A stretch of DNA of 44,468 nucleotides from a virus. Its lineage: Duplodnaviria; Heunggongvirae; Uroviricota; Caudoviricetes. The notes below the pieces were generated by a model. That model was not told the origin of the DNA and made no database searches. It saw nothing but the letters and a program-made list of their open reading frames with translations. Position 1 is the first letter of the stretch; each line of letters begins with the position of its first letter. The translations under genes were made by a program, and so were the position numbers. The stretch covers positions 1 through 44,468 of the IMG/VR virus record IMGVR_UViG_2778261246_000004; one strand, 5' to 3'. Below, one piece after another: positions 19,293 through 35,819 of this stretch.

Positions 19293-20853
19293 CGCCTTTT
19301 CCTCCCGTTGTCTGTCGGATCTGCTGCACAAACGTGTCCTTTATCCAGATGGGGCGGGGAAGACCCGCTGCCTGTCGCTCCTGGCTTTCACGCAGTTGCT
19401 GGCGGAAAATCTCCTGATAGTCATCGCCCATCAGGGCCAGCTCTTTCTCGTACGTGCTTAAACCACCTTCAATACGCATCACCGCTTCCTGCACTTCCTT
19501 AAGGCCATCAATCGCCATGCGACCGGCACCAATCCACTCGGCACGACACCATCCGGAACGGGCCTCCCAGAATGAAAAACGGGATTTCGGCGGACGGATC
19601 ACACCGCGAATAAGAGCTTCCTCCAGCCAGCAGGCAAACATCTGTGATGCCAGCCGGCTGGCCACAAATTTTCGTTTGCCCATAAAATACCGCCACGACT
19701 CATTGGCGGATGCCCTGGCACTGGAATAACTGACCTGTGAATAATCACGGGAAAGCTGTTCATAGGACACCCCCAGTCCGGCAGCGATGTAACGTAACAG
19801 CGCCTTTTCCAGTTCAGAGAAACCATTATCTGCATTCTGCGCTGTCTGCAGATTCAGTGAATCCCCCGGATAAAGATGCGGAATACGGACCCCGCCCAGC
19901 TTTACCGTATTGGTGGCGTAATAACGCGCGTAGCCTTTCATGATGGTGTTCAGGGGATTTTTACCGCCATCTCCCACCCCGGCGATATATTCAAATGCTT
20001 TTTCCGAATCCAGCGTGGATTCAATCGTCGCGGCATACATCGCCCGCACCACCGCCGACTGCAGTTGCGTGGCCTGCAGCGTGTCGAGCATCTTGAGACG
20101 CTCCATGACAGAATAAAACTGGTTGGCCCCGCGCGTCTGCCCGTCCTCCTGCGGCTGAAACACATGGATCATTCCCGGTCGCCCGGAGGGCAGCGTCGCC
20201 GCAATCCGCGTCCAGTTGCTGACACCGTAACCGGGCCAGTCATCTTCCTGAACATGGTAGGCCAGTGCTTTTCCGTACCGGTTGATTTCCACCCCGGCAC
20301 GCATAAAACGATCGCCGGTACCATAACCGGGTGTACTGACACGTTTCGGGCTGATGGTCTTGAATTTCGTCCGGAATAATGACGTGGATTCCGTATCCCA
20401 TACGGGCTGGACAAAAATTTCACCGTTAAACGTATGAACGCCCACCCCTTCACGAATAAATTCGGTAAACGAGCGACGCCCCTCCACATCCATCGAACCA
20501 AACACAGGATCGCAATATTCCATCCACGCCGCCTCCACATCTTCAATAAAGGCATGCGAATCGGCTTCCGACATCCCCAGCCAGCGCCAGTTGGGCCGGT
20601 AGCTCAGACGAAACATGTGCCCGACGATATGGTCTTTATGAATTTCCACTGCATTTGCGGCAATACCGTTGTTACGGACCAGATCATCCGCACGGGCGTT
20701 ACCCAGCTGAATGGAAGGTAAGAGCGCCACGTCGGCACTTTCCGGTGCAGGCAACCATTCCGCAAGCTGCCCGCCAAATCCGGTACCCCCTCCGGAATAC
20801 CCCATACTCTGCCGCAATGGCTGCCCGTGAAGATCCACCAGTTCCCTGTTCAC
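19282..20853 (-). CDS. Portal protein, lambda gpB-like
   Basis: 523-aa ORF between W and C as in lambda. Confidence 0.85.
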   Translation of the reverse strand: MNRELVDLHGQPLRQSMGYSGGGTGFGGQLAEWLPAPESADVALLPSIQLGNARADDLVRNNGIAANAVEIHKDHIVGHMFRLSYRPNWRWLGMSEADSHAFIEDVEAAWMEYCDPVFGSMDVEGRRSFTEFIREGVGVHTFNGEIFVQPVWDTESTSLFRTKFKTISPKRVSTPGYGTGDRFMRAGVEINRYGKALAYHVQEDDWPGYGVSNWTRIAATLPSGRPGMIHVFQPQEDGQTRGANQFYSVMERLKMLDTLQATQLQSAVVRAMYAATIESTLDSEKAFEYIAGVGDGGKNPLNTIMKGYARYYATNTVKLGGVRIPHLYPGDSLNLQTAQNADNGFSELEKALLRYIAAGLGVSYEQLSRDYSQVSYSSARASANESWRYFMGKRKFVASRLASQMFACWLEEALIRGVIRPPKSRFSFWEARSGWCRAEWIGAGRMAIDGLKEVQEAVMRIEGGLSTYEKELALMGDDYQEIFRQQLRESQERQAAGLPRPIWIKDTFVQQIRQTTGGKGDAS

Positions 20854-21062: not shown

Positions 21063-23021
21063 TTATCCTCCACTCAGTGCAGCCGCGATTTCTTCCAGAC
21101 TCATCTCATCGTCGTCCTGCTCATCTCTTCTGGCACGGGCCAGTGCTTCAAGATCCAGCTGCCACCGCTGAACTGAAATACGCAGGGCAGCATAGGCATA
21201 TACCAGGCAGTCGAGGGCTTCGTTGCGTCGCCCTTTTTTATCCCACAGCAGTTTCACCCTGCCATTAACCACCTTCTCCACCAACTCTTCCGCCACGATC
21301 TGACGCGCCTCTTCTTCCGAAAAAATGTCGGGGTTATCCGGAAAACGGAAGGTATACGGGGCGGCTTCACTGGCAGAGACCACCGGCAGGGCAAAACGGG
21401 CGTACAGCATTTCCTTGACGGTATCGGAGCCCACCTCACACAAAAACACACCACGCTGGTTGCGCTTTTTGGGCATGGTGATCACCGGCTTGCCGTACAC
21501 CGATGCCCCTTTTATGGGAAGCACAAAAAAAGTGCCGTGTTTCCTGGAACGCTGATACACAATGTCCTGGTCGATACCACCGGTATCCCAGCAGACACGG
21601 GAAATGGAAATTTCAGTACCGTCAGCATGACGATATTTTTTCCGGATCACCGTATCAACACGTTTAAGGGTGTCCTCGTCTTCCGGTCGCCCCATGATAA
21701 TTTGCTTATCAATCAGAAAGGCTTCTTCGCCGGGAGCCCAGCCCCAGACATAAATTTCATAGCGATCTTTCTGGGAGTCGATCCCTGCGGTCAGGTAAAC
21801 CACCCGCAGGGGAACCTGCGCGCCATAGTGGCAGACTTTTTCCAGCAACAACTCAAAGCTCAGTTTTTCTGCCACGGCCTCTTCATAGGGCTCCCCGAGC
21901 GTGGTGTTAATAAACGTCTTAACACCGTTCGGATCCTTCAGCGCATCCAGCCAGTCATAAACAATCTGTACCCAGGTGGTGAACGGACTGTACGCCGTCC
22001 AGATGTGGAAAGTGACGGAGCGCGGCGGTGGCATCTCCTCATCGCCGGCGCTGTAAAATGCCAGGCCGTCGCGCGTCCACATCCCGGTATTGTCACAAAT
22101 CCAGCGCCCGTCGGTCTGGTCAAGTTCCGACTGCCGGATCACACAGCCATTATGTTCACACAGGTAATACACCGTTTCCGGTTTACCCTTCTCCCATTTC
22201 AGGCCAAATGGCGTCGCATCATCACCAAACTTCAGATACTGGGCCTCCCCGCAATGAGGGCAAGGGACATAAAACCGCATGAAATGCGCTGATTCATTTG
22301 CGGCTTTCTCAATCTGGCAGGAGCCTTTAATTTTTGGCGTTGAGCCACGTATGGATTTAGGCCATACCGAGCCTTCGATACGCTTATCGCCAAGCAGCGT
22401 CGGCGAACCTTCTTTTTCCACATCCGGTTCAAACGAGGAGAGTTCGTCATAGCAGACCACATCCACAGATTTTTCACGGTAGTTTTTAGCAGCCGCGCCG
22501 CCAAGGCACCAGAAACCCACACCGGAGGAAAAACGCTTCAGGGTGAGTGTATTATCGCGGTGCTTTCTTCCGAACCATGGAGCCAGCTCCAGCAATGCAG
22601 GGACATCCCTTATCGTGGGCTCAACATGAGATTTCATGAAATCTTCTGCAGCAGAATCTGTTGGCTGAAAAAGCAGACTGTTACGGGATTTATGCTCAAT
22701 AAAATAAGCCTCCACCCCCAACAGCATTTTGGTGTAACCAACGCGCGCCGATTTAATCAGATTAACGGTGCGGATCCGGTCATTTCCCATGCTGTTCATA
22801 ATAGCAACCTGAAACGGCAGGGTTTCCCATTGCCCGGGGGTATATGAAGATTCTTTCGGCAGATAATAATGTTTATCAGCCCACTGAACTGTCGTCAGTG
22901 GAACCGGAATATTGAGAGATAAAAGCCCTGTAGCTATCGCACCGGCTGCATTAGCTGCCTTCTGTGCGTCTGAAATCATCAATCCACCTGCCCACGTTTT
23001 CACCGGCTTTAGCTGCAACAT
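21063..23021 (-). CDS. Terminase large subunit, lambda gpA-like
   Basis: 652-aa ORF; extended identity to lambda A by eye ([67 protein letters not shown]). Confidence 0.9.
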
Positions 23022-23499
23022 TGGAGGCTTTCGCGATTTCAGTTTTCACCACATCAAGGTGTGACGGTGAAATATCCGGATATTTACGCTGTAATGTCAG
23101 CGGCACACGTACAAGTATCCCCGAAATCTCCTGTGCCACACGTTGCAGAATGAAGGTAAACAATTCCGTTTCCAGCACCAGCCCTTCTTCACGGGCATTT
23201 TTCAGCTCCTGTGCGTCAGCCTGTGCTTTGGTTAGCCGGTAGCGTTCATAGTCAATGGTGCCGGGTTGTAAATCTGATTCTGCAGCCGCACGCAAATCTT
23301 CCAGTTCTTTGCGGAGCTTTTCGTTTTCGATATCAGTTTCTCTCTGCGCGTACCACTGAATTGCCATCGCGGTATCAAACACAGATTCAACACCCTTGCT
23401 ACCTCCGGAGACGCAAGATAGCCCCTGAGACTGCCAGCGTTCAATCGTTCGCGGATCCACGTTGAAAATTTCGGCAAGTTTCTTTTTGTTAACTTTCAT
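22951..23499 (-). CDS. Terminase small subunit, lambda Nu1-like
   Basis: Start at ATG 23499 ([12 protein letters not shown], cf. lambda MEVNKKQLADIF); TIERWQ.QGL, IENEKLR.E.E.LR and [24 protein letters not shown] conserved. Confidence 0.85.
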
Positions 23500-23523
23500 A
23501 ATACATTTCTCTATCAAATACAG

Positions 23524-23578
23524 GGTCCGACATGAAAACGCTTAAAATGTCCTTTTTCTGGTGTTTTCATGTCGGACC
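23524..23578. promoter_or_regulatory. 16-bp perfect inverted repeat (GGTCCGACATGAAAAC ... GTTTTCATGTCGGACC) just upstream of the small terminase gene; candidate cosB / terminase binding element
   Basis: Seen directly; lies 25-80 bp upstream of the Nu1 start, where lambda carries cosB R sites. Confidence 0.35.
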
Positions 23579-24083
23579 TTTTACTGATGTGATGTCAGAA
23601 AAAACAAATAGTTATGCGCGAGAAGTACCGACATGCTTTTTCCTGAAAAATTTTCATAAATAGCGCGTTTTTGCGCGTGCTATGACCCCCGGTGTTTCAA
23701 CTCCCGGAAAGGACCCGCACAAATGGGAGCGTTTATCATTAACATTTACAGATAAGATGACGTACATCATTGAAACGCCATTCAGCCATATACCGGCAGC
23801 ATTCGTAGTTGCACTCCGTAACTCTGCGACTAAGGTTAAAAACATGGCCCTCTTTTGCCACCGGCAAATCTTCAATGGATTTCCCCTGCCGGTTTTTTAT
23901 TTTCGTCGATGCATAACATTGCATTTACATCAATAGCGGCTATTGTCATTAGTATGTTGCATCAATGCATGGGTGGTATTGGCGGTCTTCGCTGGCCGGT
24001 TCTGTGTAGCTGCTCCCTGTGACCGGTTTTTTATTTCTCACATTACAGCAGTCCCTTAGAGTGAAGGGCTGCTGTAATGCCTG

Positions 24084-24482
24084 TTACTCACGAATCAGGC
24101 GAGCACTCTTATCATTCATTTCAATACGCGAATACTGCGGTTTACCATCAATGATGTCTGTCATTACGAACATCTCACCCGGCTGCAGCTCAACCACTGC
24201 GCCTTCCGGTAATTTCATACCGGCAAATACCGGACAACCTGGATGACGATCATCTTCTGTTGCTTCCAGCATTGACTCACCAAACCACTCCGTCGTGGCG
24301 CGACCGTCAGCTGCCTTGTAGTGGATCAAGTACTGGTTTTCGCCATCCGCATACTGCGCACGGGCTTTAACCTCACCCCATTCGTCACTGATGCGCATCT
24401 CCACCAGTTGAGACAACTCAAACTTAAACGGAGCAGCATCAGCACCAATTACAATCGGTTTGTTTTCTGTTTTTTCCATCAT
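24084..24482 (-). CDS. Hypothetical protein
   Basis: Start at MMEK with AGGAGA RBS; acidic soluble protein; no family recognised. Confidence 0.4.
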   Translation of the reverse strand: MMEKTENKPIVIGADAAPFKFELSQLVEMRISDEWGEVKARAQYADGENQYLIHYKAADGRATTEWFGESMLEATEDDRHPGCPVFAGMKLPEGAVVELQPGEMFVMTDIIDGKPQYSRIEMNDKSARLIRE

Positions 24483-24653
24483 CGTCTCCTGATATCGAAG
24501 CCCGTCGCCGCACCGGGCACTGATCAACATTTGAGTATTCGCGGCGACAGAAAGAATTTATTTTATTGAATAGCCACTAACACAGAATTTCATGCTATCC
24601 GAACGCTGACGCACCCTTCATTTTTCAGCAAAATATTCTACTATTACAGGTGA

Positions 24654-24836
24654 TCAGTTCTGCAGACACTGCCGAACGCCATCGATAAGCTGGCAGACCT
24701 GAGAAGCCGTATCGAAAAGCTGGCGCGCCTTATCCAGGCTGACGCATCCCACCAGGAAAAAAGGCACCAGTATCGCTACCAGTGCCCATTTCGCCGCCGT
24801 TCGCGGCATTCTGTGTGTCCAGTGTTTTTGCTTCAT
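24654..24836 (-). CDS. Small predicted lipoprotein (60 aa; signal peptide with lipobox LVGC)
   Basis: MKQKHWTHRMPRTAAKWALVAILVPFFLVGC...; ATG 4 nt after the stop of the upstream small ORF. Confidence 0.5.
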   Translation of the reverse strand: MKQKHWTHRMPRTAAKWALVAILVPFFLVGCVSLDKARQLFDTASQVCQLIDGVRQCLQN

Positions 24837-24840
24837 CTCA

Positions 24841-24981
24841 CTATCCACCAATCAATCCGGATAAGCTCAATACTCGCCAGGCGGTGGAAATGAAAATGGC
24901 AACCAACATTGCTGAAAATGAAAGACCAACAACCACACAAAGAATCCGCGCCAGTTTTATGATGCTATCTGACATACTCAT
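24841..24981 (-). CDS. Small membrane protein (46 aa, one TM helix)
   Basis: MSMSDSIIKLARILCVVVGLSFSAMLVAIFISTAW...; translationally coupled to flanking small ORFs. Confidence 0.35.
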   Translation of the reverse strand: MSMSDSIIKLARILCVVVGLSFSAMLVAIFISTAWRVLSLSGLIGG

Positions 24982-24992
24982 CCCCGCACCAC

Positions 24993-25175
24993 TTACGATT
25001 TCACAGCAATGATCAATTTTGCCATCCCATACAGAATCGGAGACACAGCGATACCGACAGCCACCCACTTAATGGCAAAAGCCACCGCTCTGCTGATGTC
25101 ATCAGTTACAGGCGCTTTCAATTCAAGGCCGTTTTTCATAGTCAACCTAAACAGAATTCGTTTATACTTCTCCAT
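24993..25175 (-). CDS. Small membrane protein (60 aa, C-terminal TM helix)
   Basis: AGGGAGA RBS before ATG; hydrophobic segment AFAIKWVAVGIAVSPILYGMAKLIIAV. Confidence 0.45.
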   Translation of the reverse strand: MEKYKRILFRLTMKNGLELKAPVTDDISRAVAFAIKWVAVGIAVSPILYGMAKLIIAVKS

Positions 25176-25246
25176 GTTCTCCCTTGCTTACTCAAGGTCA
25201 GAAACAGAAAACCCCGAACTGTTCCCGCAGCCGGGGTTTTTGCTTT

Positions 25247-25528
25247 TTATTTATCTGTATGGGCGCGACATCTTGCTATTTCATTCCGGGCTTCACTGTC
25301 GCCACGACAGATACAACGCGCCGTGTCACCGTTCAGTGTGATGATGTAGGCTTCATCCTCTTTTTCTACAGGAATGCACGGAATATTCCCGTCCCGGCAA
25401 TACTCAATCTTCGCTGCAAGATGAGTGTTACGCGGATAGAACTCCAGGCGGTACATATCCCCCAGGACATGCACTTCCTCAACATGACGACCGTCTTCTG
25501 TTACCGTGATTTTCTTGAGTGCGTACAT
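25247..25528 (-). CDS. Hypothetical Cys-containing small protein
   Basis: 93-aa ORF with GGAGGT RBS; Cys pairs (C..DG..PC, C.C, RCR). Confidence 0.45.
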   Translation of the reverse strand: MYALKKITVTEDGRHVEEVHVLGDMYRLEFYPRNTHLAAKIEYCRDGNIPCIPVEKEDEAYIITLNGDTARCICRGDSEARNEIARCRAHTDK

Positions 25529-25562
25529 ACGTACCTCCGTTCTTTCGTTTTTGAGTAATAAA

Positions 25563-25590
25563 AAAGGCCGCCGAAGCGACCTTTGTCAGA
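25563..25590 (-). terminator. Rho-independent terminator-like hairpin
   Basis: Minus-strand RNA GGUCGC-UUCG-GCGGCC followed by U6, downstream of the 25608-25814 gene. Confidence 0.45.
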
Positions 25591-25607
25591 ATTATTCACA
25601 CCTTATG

Positions 25608-25814
25608 TCAGGATGTATGGCAATCTCTGCAGCACCAGTAACATCCATTCACCCTCGTGTAACCCAGATTTTTTGCGGCCTTCACTGCCGGCTCACATGA
25701 GCTAAACTCTCCAAGCTCTTTACGATTGTTTGCATCAGGAAGTCGAAAACATGTTTCTGTATGAACCTCATGATCGTTCTGATTATCTGTAAGAGTATGA
25801 ACATAGTACTTCAT
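25608..25814 (-). CDS. Hypothetical Cys-rich small protein
   Basis: Start at internal ATG 25814 with strong RBS AAAAGGAGAAA; C-terminal GCYWCCRDCH. Confidence 0.45.
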   Translation of the reverse strand: MKYYVHTLTDNQNDHEVHTETCFRLPDANNRKELGEFSSCEPAVKAAKNLGYTRVNGCYWCCRDCHTS

Positions 25815-25903
25815 ACGTATTTCTCCTTTTGGTTGCGTACGCCCAGGAGAAATTAAACGCAAAATACACTTAACTCATTGATAATGATCATTTTTAAATG
25901 CTA

Positions 25904-26449
25904 TCACACAGCCACGCGCTCTTTCATCCAGCCGTAGACAAACGACTCGTTGGCCTCACGTTTTTCTGCCAGTTCCAGATAGCGGTCGCCCTGCGTGCAG
26001 TTCAGCGCTTTCACCAGTACCAATTCGCCGTCTTTGCCTCGTTTTTGCAGATATGCGCGTAGTGCATTAATAGTGCGTGGACCGATACGCCCGTCTGTGT
26101 CCATATCCGGGTACAACTTGCCTTGTTGATTGAACACGTTCAGCCAGCGTTGAAGCATTCTGGACGCCACGGTTGGTCCCATGTTCACGCCCGTATCGCA
26201 CAGTTCTGCGGCAATATCCGGCGACAGAGTTGCCACCTGGTCAAAACGTGGTCCGAACCAGTAATCCGCCTCGAGTATTTCCAGCGCCTGCCCGCGCGTC
26301 AGGTCACGCATATCGCCGCGATATCCGTGAGCGCGGGCGACTTTTTCTGTAATACCCCATTTTGTCGGCCCACCTTTATCGTCCGGATGATTGACGTAGC
26401 CACCCTCTTTTCCGAGGATTTCATCAAAAATGACGTCCTTTGATTTCAT
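25904..26449 (-). CDS. Endolysin, glycoside hydrolase family 108 N-terminal domain with C-terminal peptidoglycan-binding domain
   Basis: 181 aa; N-terminal EGGYVNHPDDKGGPTKWGIT motif characteristic of GH108 lysozymes; directly follows holin-like genes. Confidence 0.75.
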   Translation of the reverse strand: MKSKDVIFDEILGKEGGYVNHPDDKGGPTKWGITEKVARAHGYRGDMRDLTRGQALEILEADYWFGPRFDQVATLSPDIAAELCDTGVNMGPTVASRMLQRWLNVFNQQGKLYPDMDTDGRIGPRTINALRAYLQKRGKDGELVLVKALNCTQGDRYLELAEKREANESFVYGWMKERVAV

Positions 26450-26450
26450 C

Positions 26451-26729
26451 TCAGTGCCTCAACAATGGAAAGATTCTTGTGACATTCCCGCGCGCACGTA
26501 TCACCAGCACGCAAAACAGCAGGTTAAAAAACACTTCCAGCCAGCCCGTTGCTAACGGGCGACCACACAGATAGCTGAGGGGCGCAAAGGCATACAGCAG
26601 CATCAGCAGCCAGGCCAGCCATGACATCAGTGGTTTATGTCTGGAATCACGGCGACGATAAAAAAAGAGCGTCAGCACGATAACCGTGCATAACGCCACA
26701 TTCAGTAATCCGGGAAGGTTACTTAACAT
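26451..26729 (-). CDS. Membrane protein of lysis cassette (holin or antiholin-like, 92 aa)
   Basis: Start ATG 26729 with GGAGGAGG RBS, overlapping the upstream holin stop; 2-3 hydrophobic helices. Confidence 0.45.
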   Translation of the reverse strand: MLSNLPGLLNVALCTVIVLTLFFYRRRDSRHKPLMSWLAWLLMLLYAFAPLSYLCGRPLATGWLEVFFNLLFCVLVIRARGNVTRIFPLLRH

Positions 26730-27111
26730 TGCCGCCTCCTCCGCCCCGCAGGCGCGAGAACAGGCCGGACACCAGTGATGCAATATCCTGCTGGTGGATG
26801 AACGAGAGAATCTTCACCGACACCACCGCCACCAGCACCGCACACAGTGCATCCGCAGATGTACCGTCATAACCTGTTTTTGATGCAATCCAGGCTGACA
26901 GTACACGCGCCCCCAGCACACCAACAATGAACGACACCAGAAAATGTGCCGCCACACGCCAGGCTGAAATCTTCTGCGGCATCGTTGCCACAAATAACGC
27001 CCCGGCGAACGCACCAAACACAATCCCGAAATCCGTTCCGGTAAACAGCCCGAATACCGTCGCCCCGCCGAGCGCCACAGCCGTGCCGGAACCGGATAAG
27101 GGTTCAGACAT
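26719..27111 (-). CDS. Putative holin
   Basis: 130-aa ORF with AGGAGA RBS; Gly/Ala-rich hydrophobic helices; first gene of lysis cassette. Confidence 0.55.
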   Translation of the reverse strand: MSEPLSGSGTAVALGGATVFGLFTGTDFGIVFGAFAGALFVATMPQKISAWRVAAHFLVSFIVGVLGARVLSAWIASKTGYDGTSADALCAVLVAVVSVKILSFIHQQDIASLVSGLFSRLRGGGGGNVK

Positions 27112-27201
27112 ACTTTTTTCTCCTGTAAATAAAAAAGGGCCACCAGCGGCCCGTAAAAAAACACCCCATCAAAGGCACCCGCAGATGCCTTTTGTGTGGT
27201 G

Positions 27202-27354
27202 TTATTCAGATTTACGCAGTAAAGGCCGGAGCACGACCAGCGCCATCGCCACCAGCACACCATCTGCCAGCACCGACATCAGCCGTCCGGTGAAATCCAC
27301 CACCACTACCAGAAACAGCAGGATGGCAGCCAGCACAAGGTGCGCACTTTTCAC
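27202..27354 (-). CDS. Small hydrophobic ORF (50 aa, GTG start overlapping the upstream stop)
   Basis: cctGTGAaa overlap with the TerB-like gene stop, GGAG 8 nt upstream; VKSAHLVLAAILLFLVVVVDFTG...; not in ORF track (short). Confidence 0.3.
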   Translation of the reverse strand: MKSAHLVLAAILLFLVVVVDFTGRLMSVLADGVLVAMALVVLRPLLRKSE

Positions 27355-27776
27355 AGGTACTGCTCCAGCGGCAACTGCAGCGCCTGAGCAATTTTCTTGA
27401 GCTGTGCTTCTTCATCCGGACCAATGCCATCCTGGTCAGCAATATCAAGACACAGGCACAGCACATCAACCGCTTCGGCGGTTCCTGCCACATCAGCCAG
27501 TTCACGCAAAGCCTGAGCATTCGCACTACGAGGTGACGCTTCATAACGGGCGCGGATATTTGCACTCATTTGTGCAATCTCACCCGAGAACGGCGCAAAA
27601 GCAGGAAGTGCTGCAATGGTTTTCTCCAGCACAGCGATTTCTTTCGCATCACAGGTGCCGTCGGCGAATGCTATGGAATACGCGCCCCAGACGGTCGCCT
27701 CCACTGCGTCGCGGTTCTCCATCTTCTTCACTTCGGTAATGGCCTTGCGGGTTTTCTTTTTGAAAATACCAAACAT
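27351..27776 (-). CDS. TerB-like / DUF533-like protein
   Basis: 141-aa ORF with AAGGAA RBS; resemblance to TerB-family proteins is from memory only. Confidence 0.4.
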   Translation of the reverse strand: MFGIFKKKTRKAITEVKKMENRDAVEATVWGAYSIAFADGTCDAKEIAVLEKTIAALPAFAPFSGEIAQMSANIRARYEASPRSANAQALRELADVAGTAEAVDVLCLCLDIADQDGIGPDEEAQLKKIAQALQLPLEQYL

Positions 27777-28098
27777 CGTGACGTTTCCTTTTAGTGGGTG
27801 AGCCTCCGCCCTGGGGTGACCAGCCCACAGAGAAAGTCACACTGACCATCCCGTAAGCTCACCCCTGAAAGGCTCTGTGGTTTTTGATGTGCGCCGGGCG
27901 TGACGCAAAGAAATGAAATAAGAATTACCTGAAATTAAGGTTAATCTGAGGATTTAAACCATTTTTAATGCTTAGTAATATAAATACGTCTCTCTGGAGG
28001 AGAGAGATGCTTATTCTTCTTCATGGACTTTGTCCCGCGGCTTTAATCCGACAGCCGCGCCCTTTTTTCGCCAATATAAACCGGGTTGAACTCATACA

Positions 28099-28122
28099 AA
28101 AAGCTCGCCGAAGCGAGCCTGT
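28099..28122 (-). terminator. Rho-independent terminator-like hairpin downstream of tRNA-like element A
   Basis: Minus-strand RNA GCUCGC-UUCG-GCGAGC followed by U5. Confidence 0.45.
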
Positions 28123-28146
28123 TAAAAGTATATTTACCGTTACAAA

Positions 28147-28228
28147 TGGACCGTCACCGGGGACTCGAACCCCGCACCACAAAACAACAATACGTGTTAT
28201 GCACTCTTACCCGATGAGTTAGTGACGG
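28147..28228 (-). tRNA. tRNA-like element A (atypical; anticodon not assignable by eye)
   Basis: 7-bp acceptor stem CCGTCAC/GTGACGG, U8, A14, G18G19, canonical T-arm CGGGG-TTCGAGT-CCCCG and 3' CCA, but no clean anticodon arm; 82 nt. Confidence 0.35.
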
Positions 28229-28282
28229 TTTTTTGTTCTGTGGGAATCCAGCCTGACGACAGAATTACTGGAACACCTTGCA

Positions 28283-28318
28283 AAAAAAGCCAGCCACCAG
28301 AGACTGGCTGGCAAATTA
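28283..28318 (-). terminator. Rho-independent terminator-like hairpin
   Basis: Minus-strand RNA GCCAGCCA-loop-UGGCUGGC followed by U7. Confidence 0.45.
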
Positions 28319-28487
28319 CAAAGTTTAAATGATTCATCATACAATCGTCGTTACAGGGGAATCCTGCGGTGCAGCAAGATACAGAAATGTAAGCAAGCTA
28401 ACAATAAGCAAGAACAGCATCTTCGGAATTAGTTATATTTTTAACGATACAATGCTTATTTAGCGTACAACTCTGCCATTTACCGAA

Positions 28488-28513
28488 AAAAAACCGCCTG
28501 TTAAGGCGGTGGT
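28488..28513 (-). terminator. Rho-independent terminator-like hairpin
   Basis: Minus-strand RNA CCGCC-UUAACA-GGCGG followed by U8. Confidence 0.45.
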
Positions 28514-28881
28514 CAAATCAGTAAGTGCTGAAGAGTATTATTATAATATAGGTGAGGTGTCGGGTGCCTCCCGAAATACCTGACATTCCATCAGATACTG
28601 TAGTTTCCCCGCTAAACAACCACTTAAACCACCCCCGCACATGGAGCCCACCTCATTTTGTGATGTTAACAACATCGGGATAGTGCATAATCAGCCCCTG
28701 CATGGAAATATCAAAAAAAATCCCACCAATAATGCACTATTCCGATAGCATCAAAAAACACAGCACCGAAATCATAACTGGTCTCCGTTATAATTCGGGA
28801 GCGCGATAAGGGATATACGAGACCTTTTCCCGCGAGAAAAAAAACGCCAGTGCTGAAAAACCTGTACCTCATTTGTTTTGC

Positions 28882-28956
<75 letters not shown>

Positions 28957-28959
28957 ATA

Positions 28960-29035
<76 letters not shown>

Positions 29036-29037
29036 AC

Positions 29038-29114
29038 TGGACCGCCACCGGGGACTCGAACCTCGCACACTCAACTTAAAGGGTTGACGCTCTTTCCTGA
29101 TGAGCTAGTGGCGG
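29038..29114 (-). tRNA. tRNA-like element B (divergent; anticodon loop CCUUUAA, possibly UUU)
   Basis: Acceptor CCGCCAC/GTGGCGG, U8, A14, GG in D-loop, perfect 5-bp anticodon stem TCAAC/GTTGA, T-loop TTCGAGT, CCA; position 33 is C not U. Confidence 0.45.
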
Positions 29115-29115
29115 T

Positions 29116-29191
29116 TGGTGGCCCTTGCTGGATTTGAACCAGCGACCTGGCGATTATGAGTCGCTCGCTCTCACCACTGAGCTAAAGGGCC
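29116..29191 (-). tRNA. tRNA with anticodon CAU, closest to tRNA-Ile2 (lysidine type, ileX/ileZ-like)
   Basis: GGCCCTTTAGCTCAGTGGT.AGAGC...GACTCATAATCGC...GGTTCAAATCCAGCAAGGGCCACCA; near-identical to E. coli ileX by memory. Confidence 0.8.
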
Positions 29192-29311
29192 GAGCGCAGG
29201 ATAATAACGTTACAAAATCAATGTTGCAAGCACTCAAAAATCACCTGGTTAAAAATCACCCTGACCTCCTCCACCAGCGCATTCACCATGTCTATCCGAG
29301 ATAAGTGGCAC

Positions 29312-29336
29312 AAAAAAACCCGCTTGATGCGGGTTT
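29312..29336 (-). terminator. Strong rho-independent terminator on the minus strand (candidate late-operon tR')
   Basis: Minus-strand RNA ACCCGC-AUCAA-GCGGGU followed by U7. Confidence 0.5.
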
Positions 29337-29381
29337 AAGTTGTGTGGCGAAGCGACCACTCTTAACAGATTAAGATAGTTT

Positions 29382-29411
29382 TTGCGTACGCGTTAGTGAT
29401 TTTTTCATAAT
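29382..29411 (+). promoter_or_regulatory. Candidate sigma70 promoter for the plus-strand three-gene cassette
   Basis: TTGCGT - 18 nt - CATAAT about 45 nt upstream of the first ATG. Confidence 0.35.
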
Positions 29412-29456
29412 TATCTGTATCCTGTGACTATTTCTCTTGCGCAAAGGATGCTTTTG

Positions 29457-30335
29457 ATGACGCAGCAACTCGAAAACATGCCAATAACAGAAATCGAAAT
29501 TGCCTACGGTGGAGAGGCATACGCAGACAATCAGATCGACGCGAAAACATTAGGCGAAGCCTTAACCTCTCTTAGTGCCCTGATTGAACATGCCGAAAAA
29601 ATAATTAATGGCGAAACAGCAGAGCCGAAAGTCAACATCAAGGCAACAAAAGAAGGTTCATTTACTTTGCTTGTTGCTGTGATGGGGAGCATAAAAACTA
29701 TTAACGCCCTTGGCCTCGTTGCAGGTGGTGGAGTTGCCGCAGGTGGCGTACTCGGGATAATCGAATGGCTCAAAGGGCGTAAAATCAGCTCCATTGTCGT
29801 CGATGAACAAAAAGATACAGCAGAAATCGAAGTGGATGGTGAGAAGGTTAAATGCAGTAACGACATTCAAAAATTAATAACCAGTCCAATCATCCGAAAA
29901 GAACTGGATAAATTAATCTATAAACCCCTGCAGACTGAAAAACCATCCACGTTCTCAGTTTCACAGCAGAAGCATAAGGTAGTCAGGGTGACGCAAGCTG
30001 AAGCAGTAAGTTTTAAAACTGCAAAATCCACCTTTGTCGAGAAAACGCACGTAACGACACGCCAAGCTAATGTACATTTTGCTAATGTTCGATTCAAGCA
30101 AGGCAAAAGCTGGGATATCATCCTGCCAAATGGCGAAGAAGTTAGCGCATCTATGAAAGATGAGGCTTTTCTTGAACGGGTTGAACACAACCAAGCAGCA
30201 TTCTGTAAGGGCGATCTTTTTGTTGTAGAACTGACAGAAACAACAAAAGAAACAAATGGCGCGCTGTCTAAACCACGCTATAGTATTACTAAGGTTATAC
30301 GCCACAGAGCGGCGGCAGATAGGAAACTACTTTAA
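29457..30335 (+). CDS. Hypothetical protein, cassette gene 1 (292 aa, central Gly/Ala-rich hydrophobic segment)
   Basis: ORF from 29424 (GTG); preferred start ATG 29457 with AAAGGA RBS; A/T-rich codon usage; no family recognised. Confidence 0.5.
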   Translation: MTQQLENMPITEIEIAYGGEAYADNQIDAKTLGEALTSLSALIEHAEKIINGETAEPKVNIKATKEGSFTLLVAVMGSIKTINALGLVAGGGVAAGGVLGIIEWLKGRKISSIVVDEQKDTAEIEVDGEKVKCSNDIQKLITSPIIRKELDKLIYKPLQTEKPSTFSVSQQKHKVVRVTQAEAVSFKTAKSTFVEKTHVTTRQANVHFANVRFKQGKSWDIILPNGEEVSASMKDEAFLERVEHNQAAFCKGDLFVVELTETTKETNGALSKPRYSITKVIRHRAAADRKLL

Positions 30336-30338
30336 ATC

Positions 30339-30584
30339 ATGTCAATCCTAAGCATTATGCTTTACATCACTGTATTCATGGCTGTCGCAGCGACGGTCAG
30401 ATATGCTGTGCTTAGGTTCTTGGTTTGGGTAAAGCCGAATGCGTATATTGAACTAACCTACACCGATCCTGAAGGCAGAACAGCTAAAAGGAAAGTCAGC
30501 GTTAGAAACGAAAATGACGCAGAAGAGTTGGCGCTACTGCTACGCGAACTCAAAACTCGCAACGAAGCAAGTGCAGGAAGGTGA
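30339..30584 (+). CDS. Hypothetical small membrane protein, cassette gene 2 (81 aa, N-terminal TM helix)
   Basis: ATG 4 nt after gene 1 stop; N-terminus MSILSIMLYITVFMAVAATVRYAVLRFLVWV. Confidence 0.5.
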   Translation: MSILSIMLYITVFMAVAATVRYAVLRFLVWVKPNAYIELTYTDPEGRTAKRKVSVRNENDAEELALLLRELKTRNEASAGR

Positions 30585-30971
30585 ATGGCTAACACTAAAT
30601 CCTACCTGGCAATGCAGGCATGGTTTACCACCCTTATCACTGCGGGATTGAATTTCCTTTTTGACTGGCTTCCTCAATTAGCCTTCTTCAAATCATTGGC
30701 GCCTGGAGCTGCTGTCGGCTTATCTCATGTGGTAATTCTTCTTATCGCTTACATAGGTTTGCCTACGCTTAATGATGTAAGAATGAAAAGAGAAATAAAA
30801 ACGGCCAGAAAATTCATCACGAACTGCCTGGCCAACCCTAACCTAACACCAGACCAAATTGCGCACTACAACCAATGTCTTATCGATCTAGACAATAAGC
30901 TATTAAAAAACATAAATATTCGTATTGATGCTTTATCTGACGCCGAATCGAAAGCTCAAGCAAACGAGTAG
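30585..30971 (+). CDS. Hypothetical membrane protein, cassette gene 3 (128 aa, two TM helices)
   Basis: TGAATG stop-start junction with gene 2; hydrophobic helices WFTTLITAGLNFLFDWL and AAVGLSHVVILLIAYIGL. Confidence 0.5.
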   Translation: MANTKSYLAMQAWFTTLITAGLNFLFDWLPQLAFFKSLAPGAAVGLSHVVILLIAYIGLPTLNDVRMKREIKTARKFITNCLANPNLTPDQIAHYNQCLIDLDNKLLKNINIRIDALSDAESKAQANE

Positions 30972-30984
30972 TAACAGTCATAAC

Positions 30985-31335
30985 TTATGATAGAATCAAG
31001 CATATACATCCATCAATAAAGCCTAATGCAGTTTGCAGCTCCTTTCTTATAGTTCCATCTGAGCACCTGCGTTTCTTCGCGATTGAGCGTAGAGAAACAC
31101 CAATAACAAAGTGAGCTATGATCAGCTCATATTCCTCTGGTTTATACTTTCGCAACCGAGCCACACAACCGTCTATCATGATGCCTTCATCATCATCACA
31201 CTGGAGACGTGACTTTTTACCATGTGGCAAAAGCCCCTTGAAGCCCGCTGCTATCGGTTGCCAATCGACACCGCTATTTTCTGCTGCAGCCCATGCCCCC
31301 CAGCGATCTAAAACCTCATACATATCACGCCCCAT
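30985..31335 (-). CDS. Late-gene antiterminator Q (QuuD-like)
   Basis: 116-119 aa; LDRWGAWAA...W..IAAGFKGLL resembles DLP12 QuuD by memory; sits between rusA and the late region. Confidence 0.55.
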   Translation of the reverse strand: MGRDMYEVLDRWGAWAAAENSGVDWQPIAAGFKGLLPHGKKSRLQCDDDEGIMIDGCVARLRKYKPEEYELIIAHFVIGVSLRSIAKKRRCSDGTIRKELQTALGFIDGCICLILS

Positions 31336-31701
31336 TACCATCACCTCTGATTTCGCAAATCTTCACGCCCAGTCGCCCACCAGGAACGAGCTGACCGCGC
31401 ACAATATTGATTTCATCAAACTGCTCGTCGTCTATGAGAAGCCCCGCATGCGTCAGTGCATCCAGCGGTGCTTTCAGGATATTGTCCAGGTCGCGGCGGC
31501 GCTTATCCGGTGGCTCCGCAATAATCTTTATCGCCAGCCTTCCGGACAGGTTTAATTTCAACCGCTGCTGGCGAACAATTAGCGCCACATCATGGCGATA
31601 ACGCTTTCCGGCCTCCGAGATGAAATACGTATTCCATGACGTCGCCAGTAGGTATTCACCGTCGGCGGGTAAGGTAAAACAAATTCTATGCGTTCAGTCA
31701 T
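31325..31701 (-). pseudogene. rusA: rusA Holliday-junction resolvase disrupted by a 1-nt frameshift
   Basis: N-terminal frame from ATG 31701 gives MTERIEFVLPYPPTVNTYWRRHG then stops at 31580-31582; C-terminal frame (ORF 31325-31588) gives ...YFISEAGKRYRHDVALIV...PDKRRRDLDN...; both halves match RusA; join at GGAATACG (about 31628-31636) implies loss of one A. Confidence 0.65.
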
Positions 31702-32757
31702 TCATGCTTTCCACTTCAGGACACCCGAATTTCTCGCGTGCATTAAAAAACGAATCAGCAACAACAGCTGGCTGCCATGTTTTTCTTCAAAATCTTTTAC
31801 CCCGGCGTGCAGTTCGTTATGACATTTACGGCACAGCGGAATAACAAACAAATCGTCAGCCTTTGTTCCCATCCCTCCCAGTCCATGACCAATGATGTGA
31901 TGCGGATCATCTGCCTGATTACCGCACGTCATGCATTTCTGCGTTTTTACCCAGCGCGTGTATACAGGCATCTCTTCCCGTTGTGGTTTCTGGCGCTGGA
32001 GATACTGAGCCGGTGACTCCGGATCAACGGCAATGCTGACCACCGTCTTTTCCTGTGGCGGGTTTTGCTGGTGGGCGTGAGGCAGCGGCGCAAGATTTTT
32101 TGTGCGCTGTTTCAGTATGCTGGTGGTGGTCTGCTCTCCCGGTACGATGTCGCTTTCGCGGTACACCGAGTGGATTTTTTCCGCACGTAACCCCAGAGAA
32201 CGACGTAGTACTGCCTCCGGTAGCGCGTCTGCCACCTGATTGCAGACCGCCCACCAGGATAATTCAGCCAGCGATAATTCCCGCTCCTGTGTGCCATTCA
32301 TTGCGTGACCGATGACGTCAATCATCCATGCTGACAGGTTTTGATGAGCAAGTTGCTCGAGTGATTCGGATGTCTGGTCACGCAGCTGGTTGTCGCAGTG
32401 CCAGCACAACACCATTGCGCCGGTACCATAACGGTGAATGACGGTTTCGCTGTGATGATAATCGCCGTGTGGCCACTGGCAGGATTTAATATGGCGCAAC
32501 AGCCAGTCAGACAATGCACCGGCACCACCAGCAGCACGAATCACCCGTGCGTTACTGAAAAACGGTAGCAATGTTTTGTCTTCCACCAGCTGCTGGCGAA
32601 CGGCAGGAACGATGCCGGACGGCAGACCGCGCATGCTTTTCGGTTCCGGCTCCACCAGCACTCGAGGGTTATGGAATACCTGCATGGATTCACGACCTGG
32701 TTTAAGGAGCACCAGCCCGAGTTCCGGTATCAGAACAGGTCGAAGTAATACCCGCAC
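31702..32757 (-). CDS. DUF968 / YdfU-like phage protein with C-terminal HNH-like zinc-binding motif
   Basis: 351-aa ORF; C-terminal CMTCGN...DPHHI...CRKCHNELH; resemblance to Qin YdfU from memory; start codon uncertain (GTG in track). Confidence 0.6.
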   Translation of the reverse strand: MRVLLRPVLIPELGLVLLKPGRESMQVFHNPRVLVEPEPKSMRGLPSGIVPAVRQQLVEDKTLLPFFSNARVIRAAGGAGALSDWLLRHIKSCQWPHGDYHHSETVIHRYGTGAMVLCWHCDNQLRDQTSESLEQLAHQNLSAWMIDVIGHAMNGTQERELSLAELSWWAVCNQVADALPEAVLRRSLGLRAEKIHSVYRESDIVPGEQTTTSILKQRTKNLAPLPHAHQQNPPQEKTVVSIAVDPESPAQYLQRQKPQREEMPVYTRWVKTQKCMTCGNQADDPHHIIGHGLGGMGTKADDLFVIPLCRKCHNELHAGVKDFEEKHGSQLLLLIRFLMHARNSGVLKWKA

Positions 32758-32758
32758 G

Positions 32759-33031
32759 TTACCTCCAGATGCGTTGCTGGAATATGCGGGACGGACGCGG
32801 TGGGCGTTCGGAATAAGGGAGTCTGACGTAGATTATCCAGTGACGATAATCGAGGGTGAGGGCTTTCCTAAACTCATACCCACGTCTGCGGTAGTTCTGA
32901 ATCAGCCATTCGGCCTGTTCTTCAGTGCAGGGATCGTGCTGATACCAGTCATATTTGAATGCGTGCGAACGCCGCCCGTGCCTGCTGGCACGAACGGTAT
33001 CAGAATTGTGTAATTTGGTCTTGTGCGCCAT
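32759..33031 (-). CDS. Hypothetical nin-region protein
   Basis: ORF 32759-33085 (TTG); likely ATG start at 33031 (MAHKTKLHN). Confidence 0.4.
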   Translation of the reverse strand: MAHKTKLHNSDTVRASRHGRRSHAFKYDWYQHDPCTEEQAEWLIQNYRRRGYEFRKALTLDYRHWIIYVRLPYSERPPRPSRIFQQRIWR

Positions 33032-33099
33032 CTGTTTTCTCTGCTGGCGCAGCAGGTGCCAGTTGTTCAGGCTGGCGTGCAGCAATATTGTCTCTGATT

Positions 33100-33135
33100 T
33101 CTGTTGTCGTCAACAGGCAACGTGCTATCATCGAA
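33100..33135 (+). promoter_or_regulatory. Candidate parDE promoter with overlapping palindromic operator
   Basis: TTGTCG - 16 nt - TATCAT upstream of parD; inverted repeat CTGTTG-TCGT-CAACAG overlaps the -35. Confidence 0.4.
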
Positions 33136-33166
33136 TGGTGTTCTATCCTACTCCGTGAGGTTTACC

Positions 33167-33424
33167 ATGCGTACAACCCAACAATTCAGCATTACATTAA
33201 CTAACGAAATGGCTGACATGGTGCGCGCCCGTGTGGCTTCCGGTGCCTATGCTTCAGAAAGCGAGGTCATTCGTGAAGGACTTCGCGCACTGAATGAGCG
33301 CGATAAAGCAATCGAAGCGTGGTTAACGCATTCAGCCGCTCCCTCTCTTGATTCTATCCGCGAAAATCCAAACAACGGACGCTCCATTTCACAGGTTCGC
33401 GCCGCGATTCGATCCGGGAAGTAA
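33167..33424 (+). CDS. parD: Type II antitoxin, ParD family (ribbon-helix-helix)
   Basis: 85-aa product from ATG 33167 (GAGG RBS); FSITL..EMA..V...V.SG.Y.S.SEVIREGLR.L motif; 6-nt spacing to toxin gene. Confidence 0.7.
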   Translation: MRTTQQFSITLTNEMADMVRARVASGAYASESEVIREGLRALNERDKAIEAWLTHSAAPSLDSIRENPNNGRSISQVRAAIRSGK

Positions 33425-33429
33425 TCTGC

Positions 33430-33729
33430 ATGACATATGAAGTCATCATTACTCCTGAGGCCGAACAACAAATAATCAACCTGCACAGATATATAACGGA
33501 GAAAGCAGGGAACGTCATTGCTGACAATTATGCCAATGCGCTTCTTGATTATCTTGATGGGTTTTCTACATTCCCGCATCGGGGCAATAAACGCGATGAT
33601 ATTCGCCAGGGGATGCGGGTAACTCATTTCCGCCACAGAACGATTATTGCTTTTGCCGTTGATGGCAGAAAAGTCTTTATTGTCGGTATCTATCATGGTG
33701 GGCAAAGTTATGAAACCGATTTCTTATAA
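33430..33729 (+). CDS. parE: Type II toxin, ParE/RelE family
   Basis: 99-aa ORF directly downstream of parD; typical size and pairing. Confidence 0.7.
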   Translation: MTYEVIITPEAEQQIINLHRYITEKAGNVIADNYANALLDYLDGFSTFPHRGNKRDDIRQGMRVTHFRHRTIIAFAVDGRKVFIVGIYHGGQSYETDFL

Positions 33730-33934
33730 ACTTTTACCCACATCATTCCGGTGTTAGAATAAACCGTCCGCCTCCTCTCTTACTGGCGGATTCGTAGGCT
33801 ATATAAATCAAAGATCCCGGCTCATGTTTGTGTCGGGATCTTTTTTTCGGCGATTTATCCCCAGCGGCAAATCGAATACACCACCAGCGCCACCGCCATC
33901 GCAATTCCTACCGTGGTGAATGCCTCAGGCCAGG

Positions 33935-34330
33935 TCATCGATTCACCTCCTGCTCAATATTTTTAAGGTCATTTTCCGCATACAGTATTGCTGTTCTGGC
34001 TGCTCGTAACCGGGCTTTGGCGTTTTTCTCTTCACGTTCAAGTTTTGCCACAGCTTCACGAAGAGCATCCCGCTTTGCATAGAGTGATTTAATCTCAGAC
34101 ACTATGTTTTCACCGTTTCTCGCACGGTCGAGAACAAGCTCGAACGGATCTAAAGCCAATCCGCATCGGTTACAGGTAATCGTACGATTCACTTCTGAAA
34201 TTGTTGTACGGATATGCTGACAGCATTTTTGCTCGCCGCTTTTTCTGTCGGCTATCACAACGTTGAGGAGTCCTTCCTCCTCTGATTTTGGCTGTACCAG
34301 AGTGATAACATTGTCGACTTCATTTTTCAT
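33935..34330 (-). CDS. Zinc-finger plus coiled-coil protein (paralog A)
   Basis: 131 aa; C..H...C..C motif then coiled-coil tail ...EREEKNAKARLRAARTA; paralogous to the 34943-35299 product. Confidence 0.5.
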   Translation of the reverse strand: MKNEVDNVITLVQPKSEEEGLLNVVIADRKSGEQKCCQHIRTTISEVNRTITCNRCGLALDPFELVLDRARNGENIVSEIKSLYAKRDALREAVAKLEREEKNAKARLRAARTAILYAENDLKNIEQEVNR

Positions 34331-34845: not shown

Positions 34846-34942
34846 TTTTCATTACCGCCATTTCAGACGGTCTCCCGATGTTCTGAGGGGGCAGAAATCC
34901 CTCCGGTTAAGGATTAAATTTTATTTACAGCGCTAAATTTAT

Positions 34943-35779: not shown

Positions 35780-35819
35780 AAGCCCTCCTGAAAATTACCT
35801 CATGACCAGAAATTAACAC

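Follow-up and report, generated by a model that had tools for sequence, protein, structure and literature searches.

To our knowledge, phages breach the outer membrane of Gram-negative hosts in three ways, namely with two-component spanins, with unimolecular spanins (u-spanins) or with disruptins. About 15% of the phages of such hosts have none of these. We analyzed a stretch of viral DNA of 44,468 nucleotides (nt) from the class Caudoviricetes (IMG/VR record IMGVR_UViG_2778261246_000004, called "the window" below), in which three consecutive small open reading frames (ORFs), here named g1, g2 and g3, lie on the minus strand in the lysis region of a prophage (Table 1). The last of them, g3, encodes a predicted lipoprotein and occupies the place where some related lysis cassettes have spanin genes. 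Its sequence and distribution suggest, at a probability that we put at roughly 0.55, that g3 is a lysis lipoprotein that would disrupt the outer membrane unaided by a dedicated, phage-encoded partner in the inner membrane. The other two ORFs appear to form a module of their own.

A homologue of g3 has been described in phage phiP27. In a purely bioinformatic survey, Kongari et al. (2018, BMC Bioinformatics 19:326) listed this phage as having a "separated" two-component spanin, both of whose subunits are singleton families. The predicted outer-membrane subunit (o-spanin) has 51 amino acids (aa) (NC_003356, 20706-20861) and a 30-residue mature part that is predicted to be 83% helical, and the predicted inner-membrane subunit (i-spanin) has 64 aa (20348-20542). 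Their combined periplasmic length, 62 residues, is the minimum of that survey. We found that the phiP27 o-spanin is about 90% identical to g3, with the same lipobox, a mature part that is also 30 residues long and the same place after the cassette endolysin. Its true start is probably nine codons upstream of the published one, which gives 60 aa. The annotated GenBank coding sequence L32 of phiP27 is in another frame, so the lipoprotein ORF is unannotated there (locus L001, NC_003356, 2963-3492). Given that the family has already been catalogued as a putative o-spanin, the g3 gene itself is not new. We found no paper that characterizes a lone o-spanin or lipoprotein of this kind, or the lysis of phiP27. 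What is new is that the published partner is not conserved, that g3 stands alone in a slot that alternates with three true spanin families, and that g1-g2 is an independent module shared with the lambdoid SRRz cassettes.

To survey the context of g3, we retrieved 88 loci through this gene. In all loci that extend far enough, g3 is the last gene after those for a Phage_holin_8 protein, a Phage_holin_3_7 protein and an endolysin (GH108 or Peptidase_M15_4). The endolysin and g3 genes are directly adjacent in approximately 39 of the 88 loci (~40%), and in Yersinia they overlap by 4 nt. The material that can lie between them is variable, and consists of g1, g1-g2, a 93-aa ORF, an 84-aa ORF, an antirepressor-like gene (in Salmonella) or an insert specific to phiP27. 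The cassette is common in prophages of E. coli, Salmonella, Citrobacter, Cronobacter and Yersinia, including phages that carry the Shiga toxins Stx2e and Stx2k or heat-labile toxins of the LT-II type.

A second census, of 80 loci anchored on the holin, found g3 in 62, an embedded Rz/Rz1 pair in two, an overlapped i-spanin/o-spanin pair in one and neither g3 nor a spanin in seven; the rest are truncated. The two loci with embedded Rz/Rz1 instead of g3 (L187 and L199) have holins that are 93-96% identical. Several of the seven loci lacking both have insertion sequence elements or deletions. Taking all retrieved loci together, three kinds of spanin genes occupy the slot: embedded Rz/Rz1 (phrog_13 and phrog_3198) in L187, L199 and L100, an overlapped pair (phrog_1026 and phrog_1275) in L265, and another overlapped pair (phrog_214 and phrog_456) in L101. 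All of these matched PHROG families annotated as "Rz-like spanin". In more distant cassettes, the same place is taken by Rz/Rz1 (Enterobacter, holin 47% identical) or by the third spanin family (Leclercia, holin 37% identical). A scan of genome contigs with holin 1 yielded only five loci, of which two were decisive. No locus among 185 contains both g3 and Rz (126 have g3 and 54 have Rz).

The initial annotation of this region had proposed that the three ORFs are either a non-canonical equivalent of a spanin or a membrane moron. For g3, the position in the slot, the mutual exclusion with Rz/Rz1 and the replacement by spanins make the first of these the better-supported half of the alternative. 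It does not hold for g1-g2, which occur beside a canonical Rz.

If g3 were one half of a two-component spanin, an i-spanin would have to be encoded somewhere, and we searched for it. Among ten proteins of the lysis region, none matched a spanin family in Pfam, NCBIfam or PHROG, and when all frames were scanned, no ORF with an N-terminal transmembrane (TM) segment and a periplasmic domain was seen on the late strand in this region. The previous conclusion that there is no recognizable Rz/Rz1 pair here is therefore borne out. The 44-kb window has no other credible lipobox ORF, such that g3 is the sole one. The annotation of a near-identical prophage in E. coli PEC422 by the Prokaryotic Genome Annotation Pipeline (PGAP) also includes no spanin. 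In eight minimal cassettes, all frames on the cassette strand gave only the holin or holins and g3 as membrane or lipoprotein ORFs, and no type II membrane ORF.

We also considered three individual candidates for a partner. Distant g3 genes overlap at their 3′ end with soluble, acidic ORFs of 72 and 83 aa; these lack a TM segment, so they were rejected as hidden i-spanins. A TM protein of 128 aa at 30585-30971 was rejected as a distant i-spanin, as it is on the opposite strand, beside a PDC-S42 gene and outside the segment that is collinear with PEC422. Finally, the idea that a holin is an obligate partner is weakened by relatives of g3 that occur with an unrelated holin family.

The i-spanin published for phiP27 is a doubtful candidate for a general partner of g3. 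Its ORF has a TTG start, belongs to no PHROG family and runs antisense to an ORF of 90 aa with a match to phrog_36812 (E=5e-20). We found it in 5 of the 88 loci anchored on g3 and in 2 of the 80 anchored on the holin, and it is absent from the window. The published spanin assignment of phiP27 is hereby corrected. Given that there is no i-spanin in the window and none in the eight minimal cassettes, and that the phiP27 candidate occurs in at most 6% of loci, g3 is not accompanied by a linked cognate i-spanin.

It is nonetheless conceivable that g3 is a conventional o-spanin that bridges and fuses the membranes with a partner that has escaped recognition, whether the 64-aa phiP27 ORF, a holin, g1 or g2, or a host protein. 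The listing of phiP27 by Kongari et al. (2018) is consistent with this explanation, as are the position of g3 in the spanin slot, its conserved periplasmic cysteines, which are typical of spanins, and a cysteine in the predicted periplasmic loop of holin 2. However, the phiP27 ORF has the unfavorable properties just described, and the minimal cassettes offer no type II membrane ORF. A specific holin is an improbable partner because of the g3 relatives with unrelated holins, and g1-g2 are missing from roughly 40% of g3 cassettes and occur with complete Rz/Rz1 elsewhere. Moreover, the combined periplasmic length would be at most 62 residues, the shortest in the 2018 survey. We therefore regard this explanation as unlikely.

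The distant g3 relative that bears on the holins lies after a lambda-S-type holin (Phage_holin_3_1, PF05106) and an M15 endolysin, with no further membrane ORF, which indicates that g3 is not confined to a single holin family. Nor is the cassette tied to one type of virion. It occurs together with packaging and morphogenesis modules of at least three unrelated types: a lambda Nu1/A module (in the window), a P27 TerS module with HNH, and a Terminase_6 module. This diversity argues against a function related to receptors.

We now turn to the g3 protein itself. The 60-aa start is supported by the motif MxRKHWTHRxPR, which is conserved as far as Yersinia, by a ratio of nonsynonymous to synonymous divergence (pN/pS) of 0.26 over residues 1-17 and by the GGTGGA sequence upstream. 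The predicted signal peptide (residues 1-30) consists of a 17-residue n-region with six Lys/Arg and two histidines and a 13-residue hydrophobic core, and is unusually long and conserved. A sequence rule identifies the lipobox L-V-G-C at residues 28-31, which is invariant in the family and places the predicted lipidated cysteine at position 31. The +2 residue is Val in g3 and is V, A, T, S, G or E across the family but never D, and therefore the aspartate that causes retention in the inner membrane is absent.

The mature part (CVSLDKARQLFDTASQVCQLIDGVRQCLQN) has 30 residues, no proline and a net charge of 0. Cys48 is invariant and Cys57 is nearly so, even in the most distant relatives. Apolar residues of the mature part recur at a spacing of 3-4 (L4, A7, F11, A14, C18, I21, R25 and L28, in an a/d heptad pattern), with a hydrophobic moment of 0.55. 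Cys18 of the mature part is on the apolar face, and the pattern is like that of a short coiled coil. An AlphaFold2 model from an alignment of 12 sequences is one long helix with a predicted local distance difference test score of 68, which shows helical propensity only. There is no second hydrophobic segment; the C-terminal 30 residues have a mean hydrophobicity of -0.07 and a polar end (...RQCLQN).

An exhaustive search of 1.84 billion representative sequences with a hidden Markov model (HMM) showed that the g3 family forms 23 clusters at 50% identity. All of these are short lipoproteins of enterobacterial phages, and none links g3 to a named family. A profile search of the PDB with the g3 alignment gave only chance matches (E>0.05). 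Comparison with two o-spanins from sister cassettes using hhalign yielded probabilities of 2.8% and 6.5%, and only the signal peptides were aligned. None of g1, g2 and g3 has a match in Pfam, NCBIfam or PADLOC; for g3, the Pfam search included the colicin lysis family Lysis_col at a threshold of E<=0.1.

The g3 gene also contains an RNA hairpin (Table 1), whose nucleotide sequence is almost invariant in E. coli, Salmonella, Yersinia and Cronobacter. Synonymous divergence at the hairpin (pS 0.119) is about half of that in the rest of the gene (0.20-0.24), and no compensatory changes were seen. The hairpin may act within the gene as a terminator or attenuator and thereby tie g3 to Q antitermination or to translation.

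Several known proteins resemble g3 in some respects. Like lambda Rz1 and other o-spanins, g3 has a ~60-aa precursor with a signal of the kind found in outer-membrane lipoproteins and with conserved periplasmic cysteines, is positioned as the last function of the cassette and occupies the same slot. Unlike Rz1, it has no cognate i-spanin and is neither embedded in another gene nor overlapped with one. While mature g3 is free of proline and predicted to be helical, Rz1 has 10 prolines in 40 residues and no secondary structure, and hhalign probabilities of 3-7% do not indicate sequence homology to o-spanins of the Rz1 type. The 30 mature residues of g3, or 62 in all when the phiP27 ORF is counted, also fall short of the periplasmic length that a two-component spanin needs to connect the two membranes.

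The u-spanin gp11 of phage T1 is similar to g3 in that a single gene with an N-terminal lipoprotein signal ends the lysis cassette. However, u-spanins have a C-terminal TM segment and a periplasmic domain that is rich in beta structure and can bridge the membranes, whereas g3 has neither the TM segment nor the length. The disruptin gp28 of phage phiKT is a cationic amphipathic helix of 56 aa that resembles LL-37, is not lipidated, is encoded with the lysis genes and replaces spanins. The g3 protein shares with it the small amphipathic helix, but has a net charge of 0 and a predicted lipid anchor.

The colicin lysis proteins, or bacteriocin release proteins (BRPs), have precursors of about 45-52 aa, with a mature part of about 28-35 aa. 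Similarly, g3 is a very small lipoprotein with approximately 30 mature residues, and no inner-membrane partner of it was found. BRPs are encoded on plasmids and regulated by the SOS response, whereas g3 is part of a holin-endolysin cassette. Speculatively, the closest functional analogues of g3 would be these colicin lysis lipoproteins, or else it could be likened to a lipid-anchored version of the phiKT disruptin.

A different explanation is that g3 is a moron lipoprotein in phages that have no dedicated disruptor of the outer membrane. It could then function in exclusion or receptor masking, like Cor or Llp, or in host fitness, like Bor. Morons are classically found in the interval from the lysis genes to cos or the terminase, and the 84-aa and 93-aa inserts with their hairpins are located there. 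A moron would also fit with the absence of spanins from approximately 15% of the phages that infect Gram-negative hosts, with the lack of homology between g3 and the families of lysis proteins, and with the seven cassettes that lack g3. However, we found no sigma-70-like promoter on the g3 strand in 23400-27400. The gene is translationally coupled to the endolysin gene in Yersinia, and is 4 nt from g2 in the window. A bor-like moron would be expected to co-occur with Rz, yet this is the case in none of the 185 loci, and true spanins replace g3 at its exact position. In addition, g3 moves with the lysis cassette over three virion modules, which presumably use different receptors, and has no match in PADLOC. 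A moron is thus disfavored for g3, and we consider it quite improbable, although a moron, exclusion or toxin function is conceivable for g1-g2.

In the initial annotation, the three ORFs were viewed as a single coupled unit, but comparison of loci separates them into two. A segment containing g1-g2 is present in about 800 of 5,426 complete E. coli genomes (~15%) at approximately 83% identity according to megablast, and the genomes with matches to the g3 segment form a different set that overlaps with the first in part. In lambdoid prophages, the genes for a class II holin and lysozyme R are followed by g1, g2 and Rz, the last of which is a bona fide spanin (phrog_13, E ~1e-72). Of 80 IMG/VR loci retrieved through g1, about 49 have the arrangement S-R-g1-(g2)-Rz and about 27 have holin-holin-endolysin-g1-(g2)-g3. 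The g2 gene follows g1 in most loci and was undetected in some, and it never occurs without g1. Conversely, about 40% of g3 cassettes lack g1-g2. Since g1-g2 coexist with a complete spanin, they are not a substitute for one.

The similarity between the two contexts includes noncoding sequence. A GC-rich inverted repeat is present upstream of g1 in both, in a partly conserved variant in lambdoid locus L005, and the nucleotide similarity of the window to lambdoid prophages extends to position 25247, which includes the hairpin at 25208-25240. The hairpin, g1 and g2 would thus make up an independent, horizontally mobile unit that encodes a pair of single-pass inner-membrane proteins, and this unit appears to insert just upstream of the gene that disrupts the outer membrane, be it Rz/Rz1 or g3. 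Both families are narrow: they occur in Escherichia, Salmonella, Citrobacter and Cronobacter only, and all of their database entries carry the label "hypothetical".

We considered whether g1 and g2 are holins or antiholins. They have no match to a holin in Pfam, NCBIfam or PHROG, and the recognized holin or holins of the cassette are always present as well. By analogy, g1-g2 are probably an accessory modulator of lysis rather than an executor, though our confidence in this is low. The Mu protein gp25 (releasin) and the LambdaSo protein Lcc6 are single-pass membrane proteins of about 45-65 aa that are tied to phage lysis, but are not holins, endolysins or spanins. Like these two, g1 and g2 are small single-pass membrane proteins associated with phage lysis. 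However, there is no sequence relationship and no match to DUF2730, and the Lcc6 gene is far from the lysis genes of LambdaSo, unlike g1-g2. The g1-g2 module occurs both with cassettes that combine canonical holins and a soluble endolysin and with those that combine a class II holin and lysozyme.

One could also imagine that all three proteins form a three-part non-canonical spanin, with g1 and g2 as the inner-membrane anchors and g3 as the outer-membrane lipoprotein. The tight spacing on one strand, with gaps of 17 and 4 nt, is compatible with such a complex, and the order g1-g2-g3 recurs in Cronobacter and in many E. coli loci. However, almost no periplasmic residues would be available, given that the tail of g2 has about 11 residues and the TM segment of g1 ends 3 residues from the C terminus. 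The approximately 49 lambdoid loci with g1-g2 beside a complete Rz/Rz1, and the roughly 40% of g3 cassettes without g1-g2, also contradict it. This arrangement is very improbable.

All three ORFs are present as first annotated. They are under purifying selection, as measured on 35 (g1), 11 (g2) and 61 (g3) distinct nucleotide sequences, and each has its own PHROG family, all three being families of unknown function. Some details of their arrangement differ from the initial annotation. The 4-nt gap from the g2 stop to the g3 ATG stands, but no junction overlaps: the g1 stop is 17 nt from the g2 start (11 nt with the 46-aa start), and an overlap would require an implausible 75-aa ORF with a GTG start. 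The ribosome-binding sites were described as good, which applies to g1 (GGGAG, 5 nt upstream of the ATG) and to g2 (GGGGA, with a 5-nt spacer), while GGTGGA in g3 is acceptable. The g2 ATG at 24975 has the better Shine-Dalgarno sequence, and is the start chosen by PGAP and in most database entries. In g1, the hydrophobic segment comprises approximately residues 30-57, and the conserved core is APVTDDISxAVAFAIKWVAVGIAVSPxLYGxAKLIIAxKS. Finally, the trio is downstream of the endolysin gene, as previously noted, but does not directly adjoin it, since the 84-aa and 93-aa ORFs lie between, each followed by a terminator-like hairpin.

We propose the following course of events for g3 as a lysis lipoprotein without a phage-encoded partner. 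Its expression would be late and dependent on Q. The protein would be exported via Sec and acquire its lipid at Cys31. Since no aspartate is present at +2, the Lol pathway would presumably sort it to the outer membrane, where it would reside in the inner leaflet. The amphipathic heptad helix and the two conserved cysteines suggest that disulfide-linked oligomers could form. Once the holins and endolysin have removed the wall, g3 would breach or permeabilize the outer membrane locally, either directly or through outer-membrane phospholipase A, as colicin lysis lipoproteins do. Bridging and fusion in the manner of Rz-Rz1 is unlikely for g3, because 30 residues are too short to span the periplasm.

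A more specific version, which we advance only tentatively, is that g3 represents a fourth class: a self-sufficient, lipid-anchored amphipathic coiled-coil peptide of about 30 residues that, after removal of the wall, would break through the outer membrane starting at the inner leaflet, possibly helped by the long and highly basic signal peptide left in the inner membrane.

Some considerations weigh against a role of g3 as a partnerless disruptor. Its position in the cassette is circumstantial evidence, and the lambda lipoprotein Bor illustrates this: its gene adjoins the lysis genes, yet Bor is not a lysis protein. In sequence, g3 does not resemble colicin lysis proteins, entericidins or Rz1, and the mature part has a net charge of 0, unlike cationic membrane-active peptides. 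Both g3 and a spanin are missing from seven of the 80 loci anchored on the holin; either the function is dispensable or these prophages have decayed. The sampled loci are mostly closely related prophages of Enterobacteriaceae, and therefore the counts are not independent events. A partner of g3 may be encoded far away or by the host. Moreover, Kongari et al. (2018) reported 31 phages that have a lipoprotein but no linked i-spanin, and left these cases open.

Table 1. Features of the lysis region of the window, in the order of transcription (all on the minus strand)
Feature	Position	Strand	Evidence and remarks
Holin 1, 130 aa, ~3 TM segments, first gene of the cassette	26719-27111	-	Pfam PF16931 Phage_holin_8, E=1.4e-23; phrog_198 holin
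Holin 2, 92 aa, 3 TM segments	26451-26729	-	Pfam PF05449 Phage_holin_3_7, E=9.5e-22; phrog_217 holin
Endolysin, 181 aa, soluble, without a signal-arrest-release (SAR) or TM segment	25904-26449	-	Pfam Glyco_hydro_108 and PG_binding_3
Cys-rich soluble ORF, 84 aa, mobile insert	25608-25862	-	phrog_4298, residues 17-83 matched
Terminator-like hairpin after the 84-aa ORF	25563-25584	-	Terminator-like scan
Soluble ORF, 93 aa, mobile insert	25247-25528	-	phrog_33497, E=3e-49; in a minority of cassettes only
GC-rich inverted repeat after the 93-aa ORF (AAAACCCCG...CGGGGTTTT), resembling a terminator on either strand	25208-25240	-	Read from the sequence; plus-strand version called by the scan
g1, 60 aa, C-terminal TM segment (tail-anchored)	24993-25175	-	phrog_1115, E=9.5e-41; pN/pS 0.26; family alignment
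g2, 44 aa, single-pass membrane protein (46 aa from ATG 24981)	24841-24975	-	phrog_4906, E=1.7e-19; pN/pS 0.15
g3, 60-aa prolipoprotein, lipobox LVGC	24654-24836	-	phrog_7528, E=3.9e-36; pN/pS 0.24
RNA hairpin (11 pairs) followed by a U-run (UUUUUUCC), in g3 codons 17-25	24762-24787	-	Terminator-like scan; -23.6 kcal/mol, z=-4.1
Soluble ORF, 131-148 aa, often after g3, not a membrane protein	24084-24530	-	phrog_1935, E=2e-70; no TM segment

The cassette of the window lies upstream of a lambda-type Nu1/A terminase (21063-23517) on the same, minus strand. The related PEC422 prophage has tail genes of the contractile (myovirus) type according to its PGAP annotation. The two prophages are collinear only over approximately 10.4-27.1 kb of the window, and the PEC422 PGAP coordinates give no intact window ORFs at 1-10400 and 27100-44468. 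They are therefore mosaics, with the head, packaging and lysis segment in common.

Some additional properties of the cassette genes deserve mention. The start of holin 2 at 26729 is the choice of PGAP, and the frame is open back to a TTG at 26783. In sister cassettes, the GH108 endolysin is replaced by a Peptidase_M15_4 protein or by a different endolysin of about 205 aa. The 84-aa ORF likely starts at Met17, and is often found downstream of g3 in other loci; it and the 93-aa ORF behave as independent mobile inserts whose positions vary between loci. The ORF that matches phrog_1935 is absent from Yersinia, Cronobacter and many further g3 loci.

In the Salmonella enterica locus L098, an antirepressor-like ORF of 186 aa (5527-6087) lies between the GH108 endolysin and g3, and its stop codon overlaps the g3 start (ATGA). 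An antirepressor-like gene is also located between R and Rz in Stx phages such as 933W, and this would be a parallel to the arrangement in L098. A 22-nt string (AGAATATTTTGCTGAAAAATGA) occurs just 3′ of g3 (24618-24639 in the window) and just 3′ of the lysozyme gene R in a lambdoid prophage (L005, 3429-3450). This string may be a recombination joint for the exchange of lysis-cassette modules.

Directly upstream of the holins, at 27202-27776 on the minus strand, is a TerB-like ORF of 141 aa (PF05099; phrog_632, "tellurite resistance"). It overlaps the start of a 50-aa ORF with two TM segments (phrog_1470, [quoted passage not shown]; DUF3927 in related loci). This pair also precedes phiP27-type and lambdoid S-R cassettes in other loci, and in the PEC422 prophage it is unannotated by PGAP and has two tRNA genes nearby. 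Further upstream, at 29424-30971 on the plus strand, a two-gene insert opposes the late strand beside a Q-like antiterminator. It encodes a 303-aa protein that matches the PADLOC candidate defense family PDC-S42 (E=3e-53) and the aforementioned 128-aa membrane protein, which has a helical C-terminal domain. The insert is absent from the PEC422 prophage.

Toxin genes repeatedly flank the holin-holin-endolysin cassette. In phage SerU-LTIIb (L096), LT-IIb genes are present in place of the g3 region, and in a Cronobacter locus (L012), a gene for an ADP-ribosyltransferase that resembles pertussis S1 and scabin is just upstream of holin 1. In the Stx phages L006, L003 and L001, stx2e and stx2k are upstream of the cassette.

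The g1-g2 module is an uncharacterized passenger of lysis cassettes with a fixed place just upstream of the outer-membrane gene. The lone 30-residue lipoprotein g3, located in the spanin slot of a common cassette, is a directly testable candidate for a further solution to the problem of breaching the outer membrane. If the proposed fourth class is real, it would be the phage counterpart of the colicin lysis lipoproteins and would explain some of the 31 phages without an i-spanin in the survey of Kongari et al. (2018). If g3 is a lysis protein, it also bears on the release of Shiga toxin from phages of the phiP27 type.

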